A stretch of 12,107 nucleotides of DNA. It comes from Promethearchaeota archaeon (lineage in GTDB: Archaea; Asgardarchaeota; Lokiarchaeia; Sigyniarchaeales; SOKP01). The notes beneath the pieces are model-generated. The model did not search any database. It was given only the letters and a program-made list of their open reading frames with translations, and was not told the DNA's origin. The stretch lies in the NCBI GenBank assembly GCA_011364925.1, contig RDOA01000073.1, positions 1 to 12,107 on the forward strand, written 5' to 3'. Positions 1 to 12,107 of this stretch are shown here, piece by piece; the first letter of the stretch is position 1; each line of letters opens with the position of its first letter. The translations under genes were made by a program, and so were the position numbers.

Positions 1-78
<78 letters not shown>

Positions 79-230
79 TTTTTAAAAACTGCAGAGACTT
101 AAATGCGCTTGATGAGTTCTTAATTAGCTTTTACCTTTTTTTATTTTGATCTGAACTTGATATCATCAGAATTAGTAAAAAATTTTAATTATTGATATTT
201 TTAGTATTTAATATAAAAAATAAGATTAAA

Positions 231-333
231 GGGCCTGTAGATCAGTCGCAGATCGCTTGATATGAACAAGCACTTTGCTTACTAGGCGAGACTTGCACTC
301 AAGAGGTCACGGGTTCAATTCCCGTCAGGTCCA
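231..333 (+). tRNA. tRNA-Ala(TGC) with a 31-nt non-canonical intron
   Basis: Acceptor GGGCCTG/CAGGTCC with the G3:U70 Ala identity pair and A73. D-stem GATC/GATC. Anticodon stem CTTGA/TCAAG with loop CT-TGC-AC (292-298) forms only after removing 31 nt. T-arm ACGGG-TTCAATT-CCCGT. CCA is not encoded. Confidence 0.93.
260..290 (+). other. tRNA-Ala intron, position ~30/31 (relaxed BHB)
   Basis: Central helix CGCT(254-257)/GGCG(285-288), 3-nt bulges TG^A and AG^A, internal hairpin AAGCA-CTT-TGCTT. A GA repeat at the boundaries allows +/-1 ambiguity; BHB geometry favours 30/31. Confidence 0.78.
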
Positions 334-568
334 TTTTTTCATAAGTATAGCTAATAAAATCCAGAAATTTTTTTAATTATATATTATATATTATGACTTG
401 ATACCATGAAGTTAGTAAGCTATATCGTGTTGACTCTTTTATTTATCTTTCAAACAAATTTAACTCCAGATCAAGAATTATTTAATTTTATATTAATTCT
501 ACTTGGAATAGTATTGTTAATAATCATATTGGTGTATGTTTTATTAACTTCAAAGGAAGAATAACTAT

Positions 569-1780
569 CTACTTAGAAGTTACAATCTTTATAATATCAT
601 TGTGCTGTAATTCGTAATTTTCTCCTAATCTTTTCTTTGTTCGAGCGTCAATACCAAAAATAAAATGGTCAGCGAGGTCAGTATGGACCTTATCTCGTAT
701 AAAATTCCTCAGTAAAGTACCTTTTTTGACTAAAAAAGCATCAGGTAAAACGTTATCGTTGTTATCAGTAAATTTATTGATATCTGATATGGGGTAAACA
801 CAAATTTGGTTTAAGATGTTAAAAGCAGCGTGATTAATCGCGTTCTGAACCCCTGTTTCACCGAAAGGAACAAAAATCTTCTCTTGTATTTTTTTCAGTG
901 TATCTAATTCATTTTGACTAAAACTTTCTTCCGCTAAAATGTTAAAACTATTTGAACCTGGCATGTACTCAATTTTTTTTTCTTGTTCAGATTTTCTCAA
1001 GTAAAATTCTGCTAAAGCACTACAAGGTATAATTTCAGACTCAATTTTGCTTTTAAGTTTTCTGAAATTTTCCATGCTGTTTTCTTTATCGATTTTATTA
1101 GCTACATTTAGGATAGGTTTAGAAATTCGTCTTAATATTTTGGAAAAATTTAAAAGGTCGTCCTCTGTCCATAAAGTAGGGTTTTTTTCTTCCAAATTCG
1201 CGTCTTTAAGTGCGAGTATAATTTCACTTCTATTAATTTTAATTCCTGAAAGACGTTTATATAATTCGTCAATAAATTTTTTGCTTTCTCTTCCGTATGA
1301 TCTAATAAACTTAGTCCAATCTTCTCTTTCTAAAATTTGTTTGAACCACAGATTAATTTCATTTTCAAGAAATACAACATCTTCATAGGGATCATTTTCA
1401 CCAATATTTATTCTTTTTCCTGATTTATCAAGAGAACCACTAATATCGACAATATGAATTAGTACATCTGCTTGGGCTAAATCGTTTAAAAATTGGTTTC
1501 CTAAACCTTTGCCTTTATGGGCGTCTGGAACCAAACCCGCAACATCAAGAACATTTATAGGAATAAAACGATTTCCATCCAGACAGTAAGAATTTTTAGG
1601 ATTATCTTGGAGGTTTAATTCCTTACAAACACAAGCGGTTTTAACATACGCAATTCCTTTATTTGGTTCAATCGTCGTAAAAGGTAATTCACTTACTTTT
1701 GCGTTTGTTAAACAAGCAGCATTTAAGAAAGTCGATTTTCCAGCACTTGGCTTTCCAACAATACCAATTAAAAAATTCAT
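569..1780 (-). CDS. ychF: YchF/Ola1-family (Obg-like) translation-associated GTPase/ATPase, archaeal type, with C-terminal TGS domain
   Basis: GKPSAGKST (G1), PFTTIEPN (G2), DVAGL (G3), GLGNQFL, NKID (G4); C-terminal 'VLPDAFLV...VHTDL...DIIKI' TGS-like region. Confidence 0.93.
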   Translation of the reverse strand: MNFLIGIVGKPSAGKSTFLNAACLTNAKVSELPFTTIEPNKGIAYVKTACVCKELNLQDNPKNSYCLDGNRFIPINVLDVAGLVPDAHKGKGLGNQFLNDLAQADVLIHIVDISGSLDKSGKRINIGENDPYEDVVFLENEINLWFKQILEREDWTKFIRSYGRESKKFIDELYKRLSGIKINRSEIILALKDANLEEKNPTLWTEDDLLNFSKILRRISKPILNVANKIDKENSMENFRKLKSKIESEIIPCSALAEFYLRKSEQEKKIEYMPGSNSFNILAEESFSQNELDTLKKIQEKIFVPFGETGVQNAINHAAFNILNQICVYPISDINKFTDNNDNVLPDAFLVKKGTLLRNFIRDKVHTDLADHFIFGIDARTKKRLGENYELQHNDIIKIVTSK

Positions 1781-1813
1781 TATTGAGGTATAATTATCCT
1801 AATATCTAAAAAA

Positions 1814-3562
1814 TTATTTGTTTTTTTTCTGTTCACTATGCAATTTATTAATAAATGCATTAAAGCTTTCGTAATCTTCCTTGTTAAACAAATCTTCTTC
1901 AGTTTTAAGGGGAAAATCGCCTTCTATCTTATTATTTGGTTCCATCCGATGAGGAATTTCAATTTTTGACGGTTTTGAGAGTATTGTGGATTTAGTGCTC
2001 GACTTCTCAATTTTTCTGAAAATTGGTTCGTTAGAGCTATTATATCCAATTGATTTTGAATGCAATACTTCCTGTGAATTCTCTAGAATCTGTTGATTTC
2101 TTCTTGTTACATCTGAAACTGTTGTCAAATTTCGCTTGATATAGGGAATTTCAAGTAAAAATGGTTCTTTAATTGAATTTACACGCATAATACAAAAACC
2201 TTCTTCTAACATAGACAAAAAAGTTTTTTTTTCGGGATCTAAGTTCAAAAGTTCACACATGATATCTTTTTCTATATGGTTTTTAAAAGTCAAAACGACA
2301 CCATTGTTAGCTAATATTTCTTTACTAATATTTGGACGAGTCGCTATAGTTATCAAACATTCACCAGTACCTCTTTGCAATAATGCAATATCCTCTAGAT
2401 AAGTTGTTAGTTTTGACTTTTTTGAAATATCCTGAGGGGCAAAATACTGTGCATCTTCAATAATTGTAATGTGCTTTATGCCATCATAATTATTAGCTCC
2501 CATCGTAAGATTTCTGTCCCATAAATATTTTAAAACCATGTTCAGGAAAAAGAGCGCGTCCTCCTTTTCTCCACCAAGGCGAATAATTGAACTCATATCT
2601 AAAATCACTTTTTGATTAAAGAGTTTTGATATCGAGAGAGTTGACATAGAATCAAAAATTGCTTTCATAGGACCTATAGAAAATCTTCTTATCCGATTTT
2701 TTAGGCTAATAAGAGTTTGCTTTAACATTGGGATTTCAGTTTTTTTATTTTCAAGGTAGTCTTTACATTTTTGCTCAAATCCTTCCCAACTTTGTAAATC
2801 TTTATTTTCACACACATCTGTTAGTATATCGATTAAAACTCTTTCCATTTGAGGTGAATATTCGGCGTTTTCATCAAGGAATTGTCCACTTTTTAATATG
2901 TCAAAAATTCTTTCAGCATGAATTTTCGGATTGGAATTTATAGGATCAAATATATTAATTGAAAAATTTTCTCCTGGCCATAGAATTATTAAATCTTTTA
3001 ATTTCTCTTGAAGAAAGTGATATTCTCCCTTAAATTCAACTAAAAAAAAAGGTTTATTGTGATGTTTATTTAGGTTTATCAGAAAATTCTGCATAAAATT
3101 GCTTTTTCCCGTCCCAGTTGATCCACATATAAACATGTGTTTTTCAAGATCCTTTATCGAGAGAGAAAAAGCATACTTTTTCCTTCCTGTTTTTATAATT
3201 CTTCCAATTCTAATAGACCCTTCGTTTGAATCTTTATATGAAGGACATTCTAAATCAATGTTGATTTTATCTATTTTGAAAAGGTCGAAAAAGTAGAAGA
3301 TTACTGCACTAAATAAAAATATGATTGAAATATTAAAAAAAAATACTTCTAAAATATAGTAATTAAAATTGCCTATTACATGATCCGAATCTATTAACAA
3401 AAATGAGGGCAAATCTAAAAACAAAAAAATAAATGTAATTATAAAAAGAGGTATGATGACATATTGCAATTTTAAAAGAGAATACCCTCTCTTTTTTAAT
3501 ATATGATATATTAGATTGATGATAAAACATAAAGTAGTTAAAAGAAATATAATATTAACCAT
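1814..3562 (-). CDS. Membrane-anchored HerA/FtsK/VirB4-like P-loop ATPase (DUF87-like)
   Basis: About three hydrophobic N-terminal segments; 'KHMFICGSTGTGKS' Walker A; 'EFKGEY' motif; atypical Walker B 'ITIIEDAQ'; 'QRGTGECLITIATRP' resembling the HerA RK-G...TQRP motif. Confidence 0.82.
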   Translation of the reverse strand: MVNIIFLLTTLCFIINLIYHILKKRGYSLLKLQYVIIPLFIITFIFLFLDLPSFLLIDSDHVIGNFNYYILEVFFFNISIIFLFSAVIFYFFDLFKIDKINIDLECPSYKDSNEGSIRIGRIIKTGRKKYAFSLSIKDLEKHMFICGSTGTGKSNFMQNFLINLNKHHNKPFFLVEFKGEYHFLQEKLKDLIILWPGENFSINIFDPINSNPKIHAERIFDILKSGQFLDENAEYSPQMERVLIDILTDVCENKDLQSWEGFEQKCKDYLENKKTEIPMLKQTLISLKNRIRRFSIGPMKAIFDSMSTLSISKLFNQKVILDMSSIIRLGGEKEDALFFLNMVLKYLWDRNLTMGANNYDGIKHITIIEDAQYFAPQDISKKSKLTTYLEDIALLQRGTGECLITIATRPNISKEILANNGVVLTFKNHIEKDIMCELLNLDPEKKTFLSMLEEGFCIMRVNSIKEPFLLEIPYIKRNLTTVSDVTRRNQQILENSQEVLHSKSIGYNSSNEPIFRKIEKSSTKSTILSKPSKIEIPHRMEPNNKIEGDFPLKTEEDLFNKEDYESFNAFINKLHSEQKKNK

Positions 3563-3979
3563 TTTAAATACTTAAAATTAAAGTGTTTTAAACTACACAC
3601 TATTTATAAGATTATGCTACCTTATTTTCAAAGACAAATTGAAAATGCTAGCTAAATTTAAGTTCAATTATTCGATACTTGGGACTTTTTTTAATAAATT
3701 TAAGATCTGAACAATTAATTGAGATTAACTTAATAATAATCTTCTCTCCAGAACAATCTTGAATAACTCTATTTAATAATATTTAGAATAATAGTGTAAC
3801 GAGTGAAACTAAAACAAGAAATTAAAATTCTTATATTTAAAACACTAAATAAAAACAGATTATAAGAGAAATTTTGTAAAAATGTATTTTCGTAAACTTT
3901 TTTAATTTTATGACTTAGAGATCATTATATAAGTAATAATTGTAACTTATTTAAAAATTCGAGAAGAAGTGAAATTAAA

Positions 3980-5584
3980 ATGTCACAATTATCTGGTGTT
4001 CCAATCCTTATATTAAAAGAGGGTTCGGAGAGAAAACAAGGAAAAGACGCTCAAAAAAACAATATCGCTGCTGCAAAAGCAGTAGCAGAAGCAGTGAGAA
4101 CAACATTAGGACCAAAAGGAATGGATAAAATGCTCGTTGATTCTTTAGGTGATGTTACTATTACAAACGATGGGGCAACAATTCTTGACACTATTGATGT
4201 AGAACATCCTGCAGCTAAGATGATTGTCGAGGTAGCAAAAACTCAAGATGATAAAGTTGGAGATGGGACAACTACAAGCGTAATCATTTCTGGGGAATTA
4301 TTGAATCTTGCTCAAGAATTAATGGAACAAGCGGTTCACCCCTCAATAATCTTTAGAGGATATAAGAAAGCGTTGGTTAAATCAAAGGAAATTTTACGTG
4401 AACTTGCCACAAAAATTGAAATTGACGATACTGATACATTATTAAAAGTAGCAGAGACTTCAATGAATAGTAAACTAATCGCTGGCGTAAAAAATCACTT
4501 TGCTAATATTACAGTTAGCGCTGTTAGTCAAATTAAAGAACAACGCGGAGAAAAAACTGTGATCGATTTAGATCAAATACAAGTGATTAAAAAAGAGGGA
4601 AAGAGCTTATTAGATACAAATCTTATCAACGGAATCATAGTAGATAAGGAGATTGTACATCCGATGATGCCAAAATCAATCAAAGATGCAAAGATTGCGT
4701 TAATTACATCATCACTTGAAGTAGAAAAAACAGAATTTGATGCAGAAATTAGAATTCAAACCCCCGATCAAATCAACAAGTTCATTGAAGAGGAAGCAAA
4801 TATGTTAAAATCTCGGGTATCTAAATTAAAAGATATTGGAACTAATGTTGTCTTTTGTCAGAAGGGAGTTGACGATAAAGCTCAAAATTATTTAGCTCAA
4901 GAAGGTATCATTACAATTCGAAGAGTGAAGAGATCTGATATGGAAAAACTTGCTCGGGCAACACATGCAAAATTAGTTAATAATATCTTTGAAATCACAG
5001 AAACCGACTTAGGAAAAGCAGGTAAAGTAGAAGAAAAGAAAATCGGAGACGACAACATGATATTAGTCTCGGAATGTGCCGATCCTAAGGCTGTGAGCAT
5101 CCTAATAAGAGCCGGAATTGAACATGTAGTAGATGAGGCTGAAAGAATGTTTAATGACGCTTTATCAGTAGTAAAGGCGGCAATCGAGATTCCTTATATC
5201 TTACCTGGGGGTGGAGCTTCTGAAATCGAGTTAGCTAAGCGATTAAGAGCCTATGCAAGCTCGATCGGAGGGAGAGAACAATTAGCTATTGAGATATTTG
5301 CTAATGCTTTAGAGATAATTCCCAAAACTCTTGTTGAAAATGCTGGTTATAATCCAGTCGATTTACTCGTTGAATTACGATCAAAGCATGAGGTTGATAA
5401 TGGTCAGTCTTTTGGTATAAACATAGAATCTGGTAAACCTGATGACATGACAAAGTTAGGCATTCTTGAACCATTAATGGTATTATCTCAAGCTATTCAA
5501 TCTGCTACTGAAGTAGCTTCAATGATTTTAAAGATTGACGATGTTATCGCTGCGTCAGGGTTATCTAAAGGCCCAGAAGCATAA
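3980..5584 (+). CDS. ths: Thermosome subunit (group II chaperonin, CCT/TCP-1 family)
   Basis: [31 protein letters not shown] motif, [13 protein letters not shown]; SD-like GAAGTGA 7 nt before ATG. Subunit type (alpha/beta) cannot be determined by eye. Confidence 0.97.
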
Positions 5585-5620
5585 AACACTTTTATTTTTT
5601 TTATATTTAGAATTTTTCAG
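5585..5620. terminator. Probable oligo-T terminator region between convergent thermosome and tsr3
   Basis: TTTTATTTTTTT run directly after the thermosome stop codon, typical of archaeal intrinsic termination. Confidence 0.45.
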
Positions 5621-6082
5621 TTACAAATTGTTTATCGCTTTAAATTCAGAACCCCACGAAAATTTTGAGAGAATTAAATCACCATACACATCAAAGTGTG
5701 TAATATAGAGAGCGGCCGCTAACGCTTCTACAGAACTCAATTTCTCCCATTTACCAAAATTTACAGGATTTGCAGCAATAAGTGGAGGAAGCTTTCTACT
5801 GGTCTTCACACTAAACTCTTTTACATTAAAAATTCTTTTCCAAGAACAATCAATAACTACCAACCCATATTTTAAAATTGCATCTCGATCAGTAGCGCTT
5901 AATTCCTCGTTAGAAAACGGATTTAGAAGAATAGCATTAAAGATTTTTCCTTTAATTTCAGGTACAATCTTTATCAAATTTAACTTTGCTAACTTGAGAG
6001 CAGTGCATTTCTTCTTGTCACACTCGTTAAAATGGAGACAAAATAGTTTTGGAAAAGAGCGTTCTGCTTTAGGATTAATCAT
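5621..6082 (-). CDS. tsr3: Tsr3 SSU rRNA aminocarboxypropyltransferase (DUF367)
   Basis: CDKKKCTALKL, DCSW, LPPLIAANPVNFGK...LSSVEALAAAL and FSWG motifs characteristic of Tsr3. Confidence 0.93.
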   Translation of the reverse strand: MINPKAERSFPKLFCLHFNECDKKKCTALKLAKLNLIKIVPEIKGKIFNAILLNPFSNEELSATDRDAILKYGLVVIDCSWKRIFNVKEFSVKTSRKLPPLIAANPVNFGKWEKLSSVEALAAALYITHFDVYGDLILSKFSWGSEFKAINNL

Positions 6083-7073
6083 ATTTAAAACTAGTTAAAA
6101 CATTCACAGACTTAATAAAATTTTCCGTAATCCGTTCAGTTCCTACGATTTTCATTATTGAAAATATGATATTTCTCGATTCACACATTATTGGAATTCC
6201 ACCATATGCCAAAGTAAAAAGTCCAATAAAAGAAATATCTTCTGCATTCAAAGTCCCCTCTACTTCGGAGAATTTGAGTTTTCCCGATGGACTCGTAATG
6301 ATTCCAAAGAAATTCTCGGGATCTTTACCAGAGATCGCAATATAACACAACAAATCACCAATAGAAGTTCCTTCAGACTCCTCCTTCATTTTTTGAAAAG
6401 CTACATTAGCACTCGCAGAAAAAGCTTCAACGGATATTTGGAGATTTTGACCGCTAACCTCCCGTGCATCCAATGTTAAACCTGTCGGACTAACAAGACT
6501 ATATCTTATGAATATAGGATTTTGGAGCGAATCCAAAACATAGCTTATCGCCGGTAATTGGTTAGTAGGGTCAAATTTTTCAGGGGAATACGATATAAAA
6601 GGCACTTCAGACCCCATACCAAAAAGATAGACGGCACTTCGCACTTTATTCGAGAAATCTTCGTAATCTTTTTCTGTTTCGTTATTACTACCGAAAAATT
6701 CTCCAAGCTTTTGTTTTATGTAATACATAGAGCTGGCTAAATTGTCAGCATCTAACGGCCATTCTTTCGTATAATCGTGGACTATCGTTAAAAGTGTTTC
6801 ATTTATTCTAATCGAAATTAAACAAACCTTGTCAAAAAAGGTAAACGATATAACTTGATCTTTAATATCTAAATCTTCCCAACTTTCTTCGCTTGCTGAA
6901 AAAGCTGCTGAAGCTAAACTTGTAATTTGATTAGGATTGATCTCAATATCACTTTTCCTCCCGATCTTTGCGATAGAAAGTCCATTTAAATCGCATAATA
7001 TCACCAAAATCGTACCTTGAGACGCTCTCAAGATCGAAGTCAAATACTTTATTAACGAATCCCTCACACTCAT
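6075..7073 (-). CDS. Tandem Roadblock/LC7 (MglB/LAMTOR-like) domain protein
   Basis: Two repeats of the roadblock pattern helix-strand-'xxG'-strand-helix rich in small residues: 'LVILCDLNGLSIA...ITSLASAAFSAS' and 'YSLVSPTGLTLDA...VEAFSASANVAF'. Confidence 0.75.
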   Translation of the reverse strand: MSVRDSLIKYLTSILRASQGTILVILCDLNGLSIAKIGRKSDIEINPNQITSLASAAFSASEESWEDLDIKDQVISFTFFDKVCLISIRINETLLTIVHDYTKEWPLDADNLASSMYYIKQKLGEFFGSNNETEKDYEDFSNKVRSAVYLFGMGSEVPFISYSPEKFDPTNQLPAISYVLDSLQNPIFIRYSLVSPTGLTLDAREVSGQNLQISVEAFSASANVAFQKMKEESEGTSIGDLLCYIAISGKDPENFFGIITSPSGKLKFSEVEGTLNAEDISFIGLFTLAYGGIPIMCESRNIIFSIMKIVGTERITENFIKSVNVLTSFKYD

Positions 7074-7239
7074 AAGAAAACCATACCTTTCCTATCTAGG
7101 CTTATCTTCGCTATAAATTCTTACTGCTTTAATAACAATAATATTAATTCTTAAATATTTCTCATTTTTATTTTTATCCATCAATGTTAATACATATCAA
7201 ATCACGACTCTAACTAAAAAATTTATTTAGTTTTCTCTC

Positions 7240-7247
7240 TTTAAATA
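7240..7247 (+). promoter_or_regulatory. Putative TATA box for tRNA-Leu
   Basis: TTTAAATA about 32 nt upstream of the mature tRNA 5' end. The AT-rich background limits specificity. Confidence 0.4.
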
Positions 7248-7278
7248 CTAAAACAACAATGATAATTTTTCCTTCTAA

Positions 7279-7363
7279 GCGGGAATTGCCAAGTCTGGTC
7301 TACGGCGCTGGACTTAGAATCCAGTCTCAGAGGAGTTCGGGGGTTCGAATCCCTCTTCCCGCA
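7279..7363 (+). tRNA. tRNA-Leu(TAG), intronless
   Basis: Acceptor GCGGGAA/TTCCCGC+A73; anticodon stem CTGGA/TCCAG, loop CT-TAG-AA; long variable arm CTC-AGAG-GAG; T-loop TTCGAAT. Confidence 0.97.
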
Positions 7364-7495
7364 TATATTTTTTAGTAATAAAAATAATATTTTTTTAATA
7401 AACCAATTAAATCTAATTCTAATTTAAAAAAATTTAAAATCGAACCTTAATTAGTCTCTTCTATCAAAATTGCTTCTGTAGTGTAGTCCGGCCAA

Positions 7496-7525
7496 TCTTT
7501 CCCGATACGACTTAGAAAGGGCTTG
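7496..7525 (+). other. tRNA-Glu intron 1, position 21/22 (30 nt)
   Basis: Central helix GGCC(7490-7493)/GGCT(7520-7523), bulge AA^T, intron helix CTTTC/GAAAG, 3' site TG^G. Confidence 0.85.
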
Positions 7526-7551
7526 GCATACTAGGCCTTCACCCTGGTGAC

Positions 7552-7581
7552 AATATGGTTCGATGCGAACTGTATCATTAA
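7552..7581 (+). other. tRNA-Glu intron 2, position 48/49 (30 nt)
   Basis: Central helix GGTG(7546-7549)/CATT(7576-7579), bulge AC^A, 10-bp intron hairpin ATATGGTTCG-ATG-CGAACTGTAT, 3' site AA^C. Confidence 0.82.
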
Positions 7582-7658
7582 CCGGGTTCGAATCCCGGCA
7601 GAAGCACTACAGGCATTTTGCATAGGAATTGAAGAGGAGCCTCGATAGCTCAGTTAGG

Positions 7659-7686
7659 TAGAGCACCGCATCGGTGTGCTTGACAA
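7659..7686 (+). other. tRNA-Asn intron 1, D-loop (~19/20; 28-30 nt, boundaries ambiguous)
   Basis: Central helix GTTA(7653-7656)/TGAC(7681-7684), bulge GG^T, intron hairpin AGAGCACCG-CAT-CGGTGTGCT with one mismatch. A 10-nt direct repeat GTAGAGCACC also allows a 30-nt excision. Confidence 0.65.
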
Positions 7687-7702
7687 AGTAGAGCACCCGG
7701 CT

Positions 7703-7739
7703 TTGTAAAATCTTCCATGGATTTACCAATACACCGGAG
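7703..7739 (+). other. tRNA-Asn intron 2, position 33/34 (37 nt)
   Basis: Perfect central helix CCGG(7697-7700)/CCGG(7734-7737), bulge CT^T, intron helix TGTA/TACA, 3' site AG^G immediately before the GTT anticodon. Confidence 0.88.
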
Positions 7740-7765
7740 GTTAACCGGGCGGTCGCATGTTCGAT

Positions 7766-7797
7766 TTGCCATCTGGATTAGTCAGGTGATACGAAAA
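7766..7797 (+). other. tRNA-Asn intron 3, position 59/60 (32 nt), strict BHB
   Basis: Exon helix GCATG/CATGC, central helix TTCG(7760-7763)/CGAA(7792-7795), bulges AT^T and AA^C, intron helix TG-C-CATCTGG/TCAGGTG-A-TA. Confidence 0.9.
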
Positions 7798-8109
7798 CCA
7801 TGCTCGGGGCGTACATTCTTATCTTTTTTATAAACATAGATCTTTCCAAGCTGTAATTTCAACAAGGCTTATATGTTCTTTTTAATCTTCAGTTTTAAAA
7901 AATAAGAAGAAATATACGGTGTTATTAAAAAAACACCGAATTATGGAACAATCCCAGTTTCACCAGGCATTCTATTCCCTCCGATTAATAGTTAAAGGAA
8001 AATTTACTTTCTTTTTTATTTTAGAGTGAAAATGTTCAAAATTTAAGTGTTGCTTAATATTCTATTTTTATCGAATTATTTAAAGTCCGAAATTGTTAGA
8101 ATTTTTTTC

Positions 8110-9333
8110 TTAAATTAAATCAGACGGCAAAATGGGATTAACAAGTAAGTTTCGAAAATTCTTAATTGAAGGTATTTCTCCAAATTTTTGCTTTATAATC
8201 TTAGTTCCAATGTTGTAAGTAAACGCGTTTTTTGAATAAACAGGATTATTTAATCTTTTTATTTGATTTCTAATATCCTCTTTACTGAAAATTTCAAATT
8301 GAGATCCATATTCTAGTAATTTTTTATCAGTGTATTTTTCAATAAGTGCACGATACGCAAAATCATACCAAAAAAGTGAAATTTTATGTCTTATTCTATT
8401 CTGGGCTATTAGAGCTTCAAGAGAGTCTTCTTTTGATGAATTTGGACAAAATTCTCGCAGACTAATTTCTACAATTTCTTGATCAGAAAAAAGAATACTT
8501 AATGCTAGATCAGCAATTCCTTCAGCAATTATTAATTTTGGGCTTTGAAATATTAATAATGAATGCTCAAATTGATTCAATTCGCGATATAACTTCTTTT
8601 CATTTAGAACAAAATGAGTATGATGGCCAGGGTATCCTTCATGAGCAGCACTCGAAAGTAAACTAGTCCAATAAATGCTATAACTAGGATTCACCTCTAT
8701 TCGACTAGTGAAATTACCCAAATACCAATTATAGTAGTTCCATACTATTTTTTGGCTTGATTCATTGTTTCCTACTAGTTCAATCATAATTCTTTCATTT
8801 TCAGGTAAAAGCTTTTGAAATAAATGCTCAGTCTGTTTTTTAACTATTTTAAGAGCTTTTTTGAATAGATGATAAGTTTGGGTCTCGGGAACTTTTCTTA
8901 TCTCTCTTAAATATGCCATTCTTGCTCCCAAATCTTGAAAACCTCCATAAGCCCTATTGAACTCGTATCTTAAGTTTTCAAACTCAGATTCATTAACTGG
9001 TTCTAAAAATGCATCATATAGTCTTAAAAATTGTTCCTCAATAGGCATCTCGATACCTATTAAATTTTCTACAGAAGTTTTTATAGCTGTTAAAAGTTTT
9101 GTTAAGTAGTGTTCTCGTGTTTTCCCATAACCTTGTACTTCCAAATTTTTTATTAAATCATTACAATCATTCAAGAGTTTGTATGGTGATTTCAAAGATT
9201 CATTTTCAACAAGTTTCTTTATTTTTTCTGGACCAAAATAAAAATCTATATATCCCTTAATATGCTTGTCAATTCGAAGTACCAAGAAGAGAAAATTTTC
9301 TCCAAACTTTGAAATTTTTACCATCTTTAACAA
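8110..9333 (-). CDS. DUF885-like zincin metallopeptidase-fold protein
   Basis: 'AAHEGYPGHHTH' plus downstream 'IAEGIA' match the HExxPGHH...EG pattern of DUF885/gluzincin-like proteins. No signal peptide apparent. Confidence 0.7.
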   Translation of the reverse strand: MLKMVKISKFGENFLFLVLRIDKHIKGYIDFYFGPEKIKKLVENESLKSPYKLLNDCNDLIKNLEVQGYGKTREHYLTKLLTAIKTSVENLIGIEMPIEEQFLRLYDAFLEPVNESEFENLRYEFNRAYGGFQDLGARMAYLREIRKVPETQTYHLFKKALKIVKKQTEHLFQKLLPENERIMIELVGNNESSQKIVWNYYNWYLGNFTSRIEVNPSYSIYWTSLLSSAAHEGYPGHHTHFVLNEKKLYRELNQFEHSLLIFQSPKLIIAEGIADLALSILFSDQEIVEISLREFCPNSSKEDSLEALIAQNRIRHKISLFWYDFAYRALIEKYTDKKLLEYGSQFEIFSKEDIRNQIKRLNNPVYSKNAFTYNIGTKIIKQKFGEIPSIKNFRNLLVNPILPSDLI

Positions 9334-9474
9334 GCCAGAGGAATTTCTTAAATAAAAAGTGTAAATATTAGAATCTTTAATACTAATTGATTTTGCTTAA
9401 TTTAACAATTTTGATTATTTAGTAAAAACTTTTATCGAACTGATTCCTTTGTACGATATCATTTAAGAAATAAG

Positions 9475-9999
9475 TTAAGTTTGGTTAGCGTAATATATCA
9501 ACCACTTTGCCATGGCTTGAAACGATTCTTGTATATTAATGTTCTCTTTTGACGAGGTAAAAACACACTGATTACATTTAGCTTGAGTAGCGTATTCATT
9601 TGCGATATCGTAGTCAACTTCATGGTTAGCTAAGTCCCATTTCATTCCTAAGAGGATTATCGGGATAAAACCTGCTTTCTGACGGATAATTTTTAACCAC
9701 ACCGGTATCTCTCGGAATGTGTCGTAGTCTGTTATATCGAAACAAATTAATCCTCCACTTGCGCCTTTGCAGTAATCTGGTAAGAGTTCTCGAAAGCGTT
9801 TTTCACCGGCGAAATCCCATAATTGCATCTTTACGGACTCTCCGGTGTCAAGTAGTTCTGATTTCGTGTGAAATCCAGCTCCAATCGTCATTTTATAGCC
9901 TTCTTGAAATTTGCCAGTACAGTATCGAGTTACCATTGCGGTTTTTCCTACACCACCCGCTCCTGCTACAATTACCTTAAATATCCACGAACTCATCAT
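9475..9999 (-). CDS. Rab-like (Ras superfamily) small GTPase
   Basis: GAGGVGKT, TIGAGF, LWDFAG, RFRELL..YCKGA (RabF-like), GMKWD (G4), TSSK (G5); no C-terminal prenylation motif. Confidence 0.92.
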   Translation of the reverse strand: MMSSWIFKVIVAGAGGVGKTAMVTRYCTGKFQEGYKMTIGAGFHTKSELLDTGESVKMQLWDFAGEKRFRELLPDYCKGASGGLICFDITDYDTFREIPVWLKIIRQKAGFIPIILLGMKWDLANHEVDYDIANEYATQAKCNQCVFTSSKENINIQESFQAMAKWLIYYANQT

Positions 10000-10207
10000 T
10001 TCTTATTACAAGAATCCTTTACTTTATTAGTTTAAATAAGAATTCGTTTTCTTAATAATGCTAAATCGGTGTACACTTTTTATAAAACTTAATATTTTTA
10101 AAATTATTTAAAACTAAAATAAAAAAAGGTTTTTATAAGAATTTAGTCTTATATTTTTTGGGATTATATGTTTAATCTTTTAATAATAAAGGTTGTGAAA
10201 AAAGAGT

Positions 10208-10537
10208 ATTAAAGACGACGACATTTGTGCGATATGTAGTTTTCCAAAAGACCTATGTATATGCGATAGCTTAAGCGCAGACGAACAACAAATAATCATT
10301 TCTAACGACCGACGTAAATGGGGGCGCGTGGTCACAGTTATCAAGTTTGAAGGAAATATTGAAGCTAATTTAAAGGATATCCTAACGCAAGCTAAAAGAA
10401 AAATGGCATCAGGAGGAACTGTAAGAGGTAACGAGATCGAACTTCAAGGCGATCATAAACTAAAGCTTAAAAAGTTCCTGATTGATTTAGGTTTTCCTGA
10501 GGAAAATATTTTTATCCAGGAAAGGAAGAACACATAA
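10208..10537 (+). CDS. sui1: Translation initiation factor aIF1/SUI1 (109 aa if started at ATT 10208; the track's GTG start at 10328 is a truncation)
   Basis: In-frame extension IKDDDICAICSFPKDLCICDSLSADEQQIIISNDRRKWGRVVTVI matches the archaeal SUI1 N-terminus (CxxC..PK.LCxC, RRxG). C-terminal 'ASGGTV..NEIELQGDH' SUI1 signature. In-frame TGA at 10196-10198 bounds the ORF. Confidence 0.9.
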   Translation: MKDDDICAICSFPKDLCICDSLSADEQQIIISNDRRKWGRVVTVIKFEGNIEANLKDILTQAKRKMASGGTVRGNEIELQGDHKLKLKKFLIDLGFPEENIFIQERKNT

Positions 10538-10619
10538 CAACTAAAGCACAAAATAGCAATATAAAGCATTTATCTTTCTTTTAATATCATAGTTTCAATA
10601 AAAAAGATATTAGATTTTA

Positions 10620-11057
10620 ATGAGTACACTATACTATAAGGTAATTTTTAAGGGCATTAAGGGTGATTCATCCGAATCATATTCTCTGACTTTTAAAGAC
10701 ATAAATCTAGAAAAACCTATTAAGATTCCCTCTCAATTTTTCGCTTCTCTAAAGTCACTAAGCCAAAAACAAACAAATGTTATAAATTTTCAAAATATTC
10801 GAGAAGTAGTAAAAATTGGAGATTCCGATGACAAATACAATTTTAATTATTATATTGTTGTTCTCTTTACAAATTTAACGGATGGAAATAAAGAGGGTTT
10901 TTTAGTAGGGAATTTAAAAAAACATGGAGATATTTTAATAGGAATTTGGCCTTTTAATCAAGAAAACGATTCATTATCTTCAGAATCAATTTTAGGAAAA
11001 CTAAGGCTCCTAACTGAGGGAAATAAGTTTAAAGATATTTGCGTAATATATTCTTAA
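10620..11057 (+). CDS. Hypothetical protein (145 aa)
   Basis: ATG-started 438-nt ORF filling the gap in AT-rich DNA, with globular alpha/beta-like composition and no recognised motif. Confidence 0.7.
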   Translation: MSTLYYKVIFKGIKGDSSESYSLTFKDINLEKPIKIPSQFFASLKSLSQKQTNVINFQNIREVVKIGDSDDKYNFNYYIVVLFTNLTDGNKEGFLVGNLKKHGDILIGIWPFNQENDSLSSESILGKLRLLTEGNKFKDICVIYS

Positions 11058-11084
11058 ATCGAGCCTATTTTAGGATTAAAAGAA

Positions 11085-12020
11085 CTAAAAATAACTTTCT
11101 TCATTTTTTTTTAAAAAATCTATCAATTCTATTTCATTTGGCATTCCTGGTCTTGCTCCGAGCTTCTGAATTTTTAATGCGGCAGCCGCGTTAGCATATT
11201 TACAAGATTTTTCTAGGTCCCAACCTTTTATCCAATAAGCCAAAGAGAATGCGCCATTAAAAGTGTCTCCAGCACCAGTTGTGTCGATTACATTCTTTAC
11301 TTCATAGGAAGGTATTGCTTTTTGAAACTCCTTTGTTGTTATCAATACACCATTATGTCCTAAAGTAATTATAACAATTGGAATCCCCTTGTTAACTAAA
11401 TTCTGAGCAGCTTTCTCCGGTTTACTACAATTTGTTATGAATTTCGCACCTTCCTTGTTAGGAAGCAAAATATCAGCATTCATTAGCACATTTTTTAGAT
11501 TACTCCACCCTCTTACCGCGATTTGGGATTCTAGATCTATGCTGATCCTGACATCGTTTTGCTTTGCAATTTCAATAGCTTTTTCTGTAACTTCCTGATG
11601 AATAACTGTAGTATGTAGTAGTTTAGAATTTGAGATATAATCTTCACTCAAGTCCTCAATTTCTATTTTAGTAGTCTGCATATGAGGGGATTGGATAATA
11701 GTTTTCTCTCCTTGAGCAAGAAATATGAAATTGACTGGCGTTTTCTTGTCAACAATTTTTTTAATACAAGTAATATCGACATTTTCCTTCACAAAATCTT
11801 CAACTAAATAATCACCGTAAGAATCATATCCAACAGCTCCTATAAATCCACTTCTTCCACCTAATCTCGCAGTGGCTACTAGGTAATTTGCTGTTACTCC
11901 TCCTGGAAAATAATTTTCACTTAAAGCATTAATTTTTTCATCAGGTTTTGGAAAGTGTGGGATTTCAGTAACCCAATCTATTACGATTTCTCCTAAACCT
12001 ACAATATCAACCTGTTTCAT
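11085..12020 (-). CDS. PfkB/ribokinase-family carbohydrate kinase
   Basis: PGGVTAN..ATARLG...IGAVGYDSYG (signature 1), NKEGA, ITLGHNG, DTTGAGDTFNGAF (signature 2). Confidence 0.93.
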   Translation of the reverse strand: MKQVDIVGLGEIVIDWVTEIPHFPKPDEKINALSENYFPGGVTANYLVATARLGGRSGFIGAVGYDSYGDYLVEDFVKENVDITCIKKIVDKKTPVNFIFLAQGEKTIIQSPHMQTTKIEIEDLSEDYISNSKLLHTTVIHQEVTEKAIEIAKQNDVRISIDLESQIAVRGWSNLKNVLMNADILLPNKEGAKFITNCSKPEKAAQNLVNKGIPIVIITLGHNGVLITTKEFQKAIPSYEVKNVIDTTGAGDTFNGAFSLAYWIKGWDLEKSCKYANAAAALKIQKLGARPGMPNEIELIDFLKKNEESYF

Positions 12021-12107
12021 GACTTCTAACTATACAGTTTTTTATTATCTAGCATCTAATAAACATTAGAAACCACAAATATTAAAAAAAGATACTAAAA
12101 AAAGAAA

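Follow-up and report, generated by a model that had tools for sequence, protein, structure and literature searches.

Six probable bulge-helix-bulge introns at non-canonical sites in three tRNA genes of a Loki-type Asgard archaeon

In this article, I will describe the tRNA genes on contig RDOA01000073.1 of a Promethearchaeota archaeon (assembly GCA_011364925.1; positions 1 to 12,107, the whole stretch analysed, hereafter the window) and discuss how the short inserts that interrupt most of them are likely to be removed, how they differ between related species, and what can be said of their origin. The window is one contig (C86) of a 3.9-Mb draft genome in 112 contigs with a completeness rating of 100%, and it carries four tRNA genes, all on the plus strand, three of which are interrupted by six introns in total. 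These introns are 28-37 nt long and lie at six different positions, none of which is 37/38, a layout that had been proposed in an initial annotation of the sequence and that my own parse, together with ARAGORN run on the spliced products, bears out. The genes were parsed by reading the sequence and scoring every possible bulge-helix-bulge (BHB) geometry, where h denotes the exon-exon outer helix and h' the intron-intron outer helix, and the resulting features are:

231-333, plus strand: tRNA-Ala(TGC) with one intron (Rfam RF00005, 52.9 bits, with a 37-nt anticodon-loop insert; own parse; ARAGORN on the spliced product)
262-292, plus strand: Ala intron, 31 nt, at 32/33; central helix CTTG/CGAG, bulges AT^A and AC^T, h=2, h'=1
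7279-7363, plus strand: tRNA-Leu(TAG), class II, uninterrupted (ARAGORN; Rfam, 55.8 bits)
7472-7606, plus strand: tRNA-Glu(TTC) with two introns (own parse; ARAGORN on the spliced product; exons conserved in 19 orthologues)
7496-7525, plus strand: Glu intron 1, 30 nt, at the D-loop/D-stem junction 21/22; HBh', central helix GGCC/GGCT, h'=5, h=0
7552-7581, plus strand: Glu intron 2, 30 nt, at 48/49 between the 4-nt variable region and the T-stem; HBh', central helix GGTG/CATT, h'=10
7639-7811, plus strand: tRNA-Asn(GTT) with three introns (own parse; ARAGORN on the spliced product; 1-4 introns in orthologues)
7659-7686, plus strand: Asn intron 1, 28 nt, in the D-loop at 19/20; HBh', central helix GTTA/TGAC, h' of 2 bp, an A.G mismatch and 6 bp
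7703-7739, plus strand: Asn intron 2, 37 nt, at 33/34; HBh', central helix CCGG/CCGG, h'=4
7766-7797, plus strand: Asn intron 3, 32 nt, in the T-loop at 59/60; strict hBHBh', central helix TTCG/CGAA, h=5 (the T-stem), h'=2

On the raw window, ARAGORN calls only tRNA-Leu, and Rfam finds the 3' end of the 16S rRNA, tRNA-Leu and tRNA-Ala with its 37-nt insert; tRNA-Glu and tRNA-Asn are called by neither program on raw DNA and were recovered by the splice-aware parse. Once the introns are removed in silico, ARAGORN calls Ala(tgc), Glu(ttc) and Asn(gtt), each with the expected anticodon, that of tRNA-Asn being fixed as GTT by the placement of its second intron at 33/34. The exons of each gene are colinear within 103-173 nt, and neither the separate loci nor the permuted order that define split and permuted tRNA genes is seen.

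All six inserts share one arrangement, in which exon positions -6 to -3, counted from the 5' splice site, are base-paired to intron positions -6 to -3, counted from the 3' splice site, all four central pairs form, and two 3-nt bulges fall exactly at the junctions that restore the cloverleaf; when a BHB is defined by a 4-bp helix and by splicing behind the second nucleotide of each bulge, every one of the six is a BHB. Both outer helices are present (strict hBHBh') in the Asn 59/60 intron only, the Ala intron is near-strict, and the remaining four are HBh' motifs with h=0 and without an exon-exon outer helix, relaxed forms of this kind being an accepted subclass; the earlier count of one strict and five relaxed motifs agrees with this. 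When the introns were dinucleotide-shuffled and the exons kept fixed, the motif at the exact boundary arose in 0-85 of 2000 shuffles per intron (0-4%), with 0 of 2000 for Glu intron 1 and likewise for Asn intron 2, and if the boundary was allowed to slide by 3 nt it arose in 3-237 of 2000. The heptamer GATACGA, which the initial annotation had singled out as common to two otherwise dissimilar introns, is indeed shared, but I reject it as a sign that these introns are related, since 770 of 2000 shuffled intron sets (38%) share some 7-mer.

For two introns the limits may shift by about 2 nt: the Glu 48/49 intron may measure 30 nt or 28 nt, and the one in the Asn D-loop 28 nt or, in the alternative placement 7658-7687, 30 nt. 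At the latter, an exact 10-nt direct repeat, GTAGAGCACC, occupies 7658-7667 and again 7688-7697, and because of it several 30-nt placements of the intron are equivalent; the first copy opens the intron and mimics the 3' strand of the D-stem together with positions 26-28 of the downstream exon.

Comparison with relatives of the same genus, in which the 16S-Ala and the Leu-Glu-Asn arrangements are syntenic, places nearly invariant exons beside introns that differ in both sequence and length. The Ala intron occupies the same site in five relatives, with one-sided and compensatory changes, and a further Ala intron, at ~25/26, occurs in one relative (L010). Among 19 distinct Glu(TTC) orthologues there are 0-2 introns per gene, with the 21/22 site occupied in 17 and the 48/49 site in 10, one copy being free of introns, and in two relatives (L009 and L016) TGAC is followed directly by CCGGG, Glu intron 2 being exactly absent. 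The 13 distinct Asn(GTT) orthologues carry 1-4 introns: most relatives have a fourth at 63/64, which the window is without, and most orthologues have an insertion in the D-arm, at a called site that ranges from 18/19 to 22/23, the 10-nt exon copy in the D-loop being conserved in some relatives. Relatives at a greater distance carry an interruption, at 21/22, 23/24 or 37/38, even in tRNA-Leu(TAG), which is intact in the window. Judged by these alignments, introns are gained and lost between species of a single genus and the turnover is genus-wide, and such differences in presence and absence provide usable material for a study of intron gain and loss.

The diverging introns nevertheless keep their pairing, with 5-9 compensatory pairs per intron among the genus orthologues. 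The h' helix of the Glu 21/22 intron covaries, the Glu 48/49 intron shows nine covarying pairs, and the Asn 59/60 intron covaries in nine orthologues; in the Asn 33/34 intron, all eight of the h' pairs examined display compensatory double changes among 12 distinct sequences, in each of which (12 of 12) the first four pairs form. It might be argued that these genes are pseudogenes in decay, hit by insertions at random, and that the functional tRNAs come from other loci, a reading to which the silence of Rfam and ARAGORN on raw Glu and Asn DNA, the C at position 33 of tRNA-Glu and the draft state of the assembly (112 contigs) all lend something, but it is hardly credible when one gene each for Asn(GTT) and Glu(TTC) was found genome-wide in a genome rated 100% complete, when the exons are near-identical across the genus next to introns that diverge and still pair, and when the insert boundaries match BHB geometry far beyond what shuffled introns achieve.

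The interruption of tRNA genes extends well beyond the window. A census parser that proceeds from T-arm seeds through acceptor pairing to a cloverleaf parse able to skip BHB candidates, and that accepts solutions scoring at least 25 (random relaxed-motif solutions reach ~23), recovered 38 tRNA genes in the genome, 28 of them (74%) interrupted by a total of 43 introns at 20 positions and 10 uninterrupted. The commonest positions are 59/60 (8), 21/22 (6), 37/38 (6) and 58/59 (3), and ARAGORN accepts all 38 spliced products with the same anticodon. The extensive intron expansion that had been suggested for this lineage from the window alone is thus borne out, both by the ~74% of recovered genes that are interrupted and by the gains and losses within the genus, and introns at 37/38 make up just 6 of the 43 detected. 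Standard tools see far less of this, with 24 tRNAs called by Rfam and 11 by ARAGORN, plus 12 with its intron option; under-calling on this scale is severe, and annotators of such genomes will miss essential tRNAs, for example Asn and Glu.

A few further loci came to light alongside the census. The region C44:8815-8973 (L091) was parsed as Lys TTT with a single 75-nt intron, which is probably wrong; it looks like Leu(CAA), as in the relative L014, and is probably a class II gene whose anticodon lies on a micro-exon of 4-5 nt between one intron of ~29-30 nt and another of ~45-46 nt, and the motif of the latter probably forms only once the former has been removed. Ser(CGA) was seen by eye only, outside the parser output. 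A probable tRNA-Cys(GCA), also recognized by eye, lies on the minus strand at C40:26750-26900 (L093), with the unusual T-loop TGCAAAT (G55) and a long interrupted D-arm region, its sole detector signal being a weak Rfam match (E=7.8).

Considering now the enzymes, PF01974 and PF02778 match exactly two open reading frames (ORFs) genome-wide, one of 200 aa on contig C29 (alpha, at L001:1453-2055 on the minus strand) and one of 205 aa on contig C22 (beta, at L002:1198-1815 on the plus strand), which amounts to two separate paralogous subunits, each combining an N-terminal with a C-terminal EndA domain, without any further EndA gene, the composition that characterizes the (alpha-beta)2 type. The first paralogue (alpha) matches the Aeropyrum pernix EndA alpha subunit 3P1Z_B end to end (E=3e-34), has the Tyr-His-Lys triad (VVYRKG...LEHSP...SVRKK, including the His mutated in 3AJV), and runs ungapped through the Crenarchaea-specific loop (CSL/L1; GISKPR vs DVEKPR), where its lysine aligns with K44 of A. 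pernix. The A. pernix enzyme (PDB 3P1Z/3AJV), itself (alpha-beta)2 with a CSL, shares both triad and loop lysine with this alpha subunit, although the sequence identity between the two is moderate only and the assembly and substrate range are here predicted. The second paralogue (beta) is closest to EndA of M. kandleri and M. jannaschii and reads KDSAKF vs KEHSVY in M. jannaschii, so that Ser takes the place of the catalytic His, which makes it the structural beta subunit. An (alpha-beta)2 EndA with an L1/CSL insert has been described from Asgard archaea, with the loop lysine (K44 in A. pernix) conferring broad specificity (Kaneta, 2018, PMC5829648). By its predicted proteins, then, the genome encodes the broad-specificity (alpha-beta)2 architecture with the CSL/L1 loop, the permissive endonuclease that had been inferred from the window's introns rather than one of the strict-specificity type, and it also encodes an RtcB ligase.

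The presence of such an enzyme bears on whether the inserts might instead leave by a route other than BHB and EndA, whether through self-splicing or another nuclease, or whether some might even be retained as enlarged loops of the mature tRNA. The four motifs without an exon-exon outer helix, and the Asn D-loop intron with its ambiguous boundaries and exon-like copy, could be read in that direction. However, the ribozyme core of a group I or group II intron needs hundreds of nucleotides, where these inserts have 28-37, and no family of introns turns up in the Rfam scan of the window; the geometry of 3-nt bulges and a 4-bp helix is preserved in every orthologue, a matching broad-specificity EndA is encoded in the genome, and 30-nt inserts retained in T-loops or anticodon loops would be incompatible with the L-shape, all of which renders such alternatives highly improbable.

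It is my firm expectation, then, that the six inserts are ordinary protein-spliced archaeal BHB tRNA introns, belonging to an intron-rich condition that is both genome- and genus-wide. In this scheme, local folding of the pre-tRNA would pair four exon nucleotides lying shortly before the 5' splice site with four others close to where the intron ends, leaving each splice site in a 3-nt bulge. The predicted heterotetrameric (alpha-beta)2 EndA, whose catalytic subunit bears the CSL/L1 lysine, a feature known to permit relaxed motifs to be cleaved at non-canonical sites, would cut both bulges, after which RtcB would ligate the exons. From the gene anatomy, the junction motifs, the conservation with covariation and the enzymes present, I infer that the six introns are cut out and their exons joined, and also the precise points at which the Asn D-loop intron and the Glu 48/49 intron are spliced.

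Several points count on the other side and deserve to be set out together. Five of the six motifs are short of one outer helix, and relaxed BHB classes often arise by chance (10.64898/2026.10.13.758758). The census uses the BHB motif to place introns and ~9 expected isoacceptors are missing from it, and the introns of the orthologues were placed by the same motif as well, so that the counts of central-helix pairing are partly circular, a circularity of which the h' pairs beyond the required two or three are free. The contigs of a single sediment run cover conserved stretches alone, namely the 16S end, tRNA-Leu and portions of the protein-coding genes, at 88-99% likeness and from other organisms; they contain no joints and weigh neither for nor against splicing. 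Finally, the C33 of tRNA-Glu could mean reduced function.

This last feature is not confined to tRNA-Glu, since four tRNAs of the genome have C33 in place of the near-universal U33: Glu(TTC) with the anticodon loop CCTTCAC (window 7536-7542), Gln(CTG) with CCCTGAA, Gln(TTG) with CCTTGAA and Leu(GAG) with CCGAGGC, the loci outside the window being C21:65636-65738, C47:13676-13777 and C101:71088-71172. The C33 of the Gln and Leu(GAG) genes is conserved in all same-genus relatives examined, and position 33 of Glu is T in most relatives and C in three others (L143-L145). The only precedent for C33 found in a literature search is the tRNA-Cys of Sulfolobales (PMC7668247).

How such introns arrive and why they are kept are separate matters. 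One published hypothesis, also raised in the initial annotation, holds that they are retained because they destroy the tRNA attachment sequences used by integrative elements, and it draws something from the clustering of census introns in the T-arm and D-arm regions and from the window itself, where, as the initial annotation had remarked, there is neither an integrase domain nor an att-like duplicated tRNA fragment. The absence of an integrase from a single 12-kb window is, however, no evidence, ten tRNA genes of the genome remain uninterrupted, and intron gains in Asgard archaea are not associated with mobile elements in either direction (10.64898/2026.10.13.758758), and I regard protection as an unlikely reason for the introns seen here. 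No general signature of target-site duplication emerges from the 43 census introns: direct repeats spaced by the length of each intron have a mean longest run of 2.09 vs 2.12 in offset-shifted controls, and none reaches 6. The 10-mer repeat of the Asn D-loop, at offset 30, is a single case, and may hint at an origin of that intron by local duplication. It is tempting to go further and propose that turnover is still ongoing in the genus and that introns opening with an exon copy mark the birth of introns, for instance through local duplication or template switching that makes its own pairing partner; this seems doubtful to me, and if it were true, with exon-copy introns being newborn introns, the unsolved arrival of archaeal tRNA introns would become directly testable within this genus.

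The trait as such is already published for Asgard archaea. In Atabeyarchaeia and Freyarchaeia, 92-95% of tRNA genes have introns, often non-canonical and often several per gene (Valentin-Alvarado, 2024, PMC11291895), and across 90 Asgard genomes there are 0.9-2.4 intervening sequences per gene, with repeated gains on terminal branches, enrichment at BHB boundaries, a widespread two-subunit EndA and an arrival route that was not identified (Goswami et al., October 2026 preprint, 10.64898/2026.10.13.758758). The genes described here resemble those of both reports in having multiple small introns per gene, mostly at non-canonical sites in the D-arm, anticodon arm and T-arm, with BHB-type boundaries, partial invisibility to standard annotators, repeated gains and an (alpha-beta)2 EndA. 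The published focus, however, was on Atabeyarchaeia, Freyrarchaeaceae and Jordiarchaeaceae, with ~2.2 introns per gene, whereas the present Promethearchaeia genome has ~1.1-1.2 detected introns per recovered gene, near the preprint's average of 0.91 for other Asgard families, and Lokiarchaeia are unnamed in the text of that preprint. The locus is therefore a well-supported further example that conceptually goes no further than what is published, and what it contributes is a Loki-type (Promethearchaeia) genus, not singled out in those papers, to the picture of intron-rich Asgard tRNA genes.

A further comparison is with the multi-intron tRNA genes of Thermoproteales (Sugahara, 2008; Fujishima, 2010), which are in a similar state, with ~70% of tRNA genes interrupted, up to three introns per gene, non-canonical positions, relaxed HBh'/hBH motifs and an (alpha-beta)2 EndA with the CSL. 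In Thermoproteales, however, there are intron sequence families whose members turn up in different tRNAs, a pattern that has been read as transposition; unlike these, the six introns of the window are mutually dissimilar, their sole shared 7-mer being attributable to chance, and the same lack of intron families is reported for Asgard archaea (10.64898/2026.10.13.758758).

The surroundings of the tRNA genes agree with the assignment of the genome. The thermosome gene has its closest public relatives, at 80-87% identity, in Promethearchaeia/Promethearchaeota metagenome-assembled genomes (Loki-type Asgard), and the neighbouring genes include a Ras-family GTPase and a weak, sub-threshold MAPKK1_Int match, also consistent with a Loki-type Asgard archaeon. 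Upstream of tRNA-Ala lies one more RNA feature:

1-77, plus strand: 3' end of an archaeal 16S rRNA (Rfam RF01959, 62.7 bits, model positions 1402-1478)

No 23S rRNA follows in the remaining 11.8 kb after the 16S 3' end and tRNA-Ala, the next gene being that of an Obg-like GTPase on the other strand, and the 16S and 23S rRNA genes seem to be unlinked in this genome. Relatives show the same order on the 16S side, their tRNA-Ala gene lying at a distance of a few kb from that of the thermosome. Lastly, a 69-aa ORF (10328-10537) lies within the otherwise unassigned 620-nt gap between the gene of the Ras-like GTPase and the next ORF.

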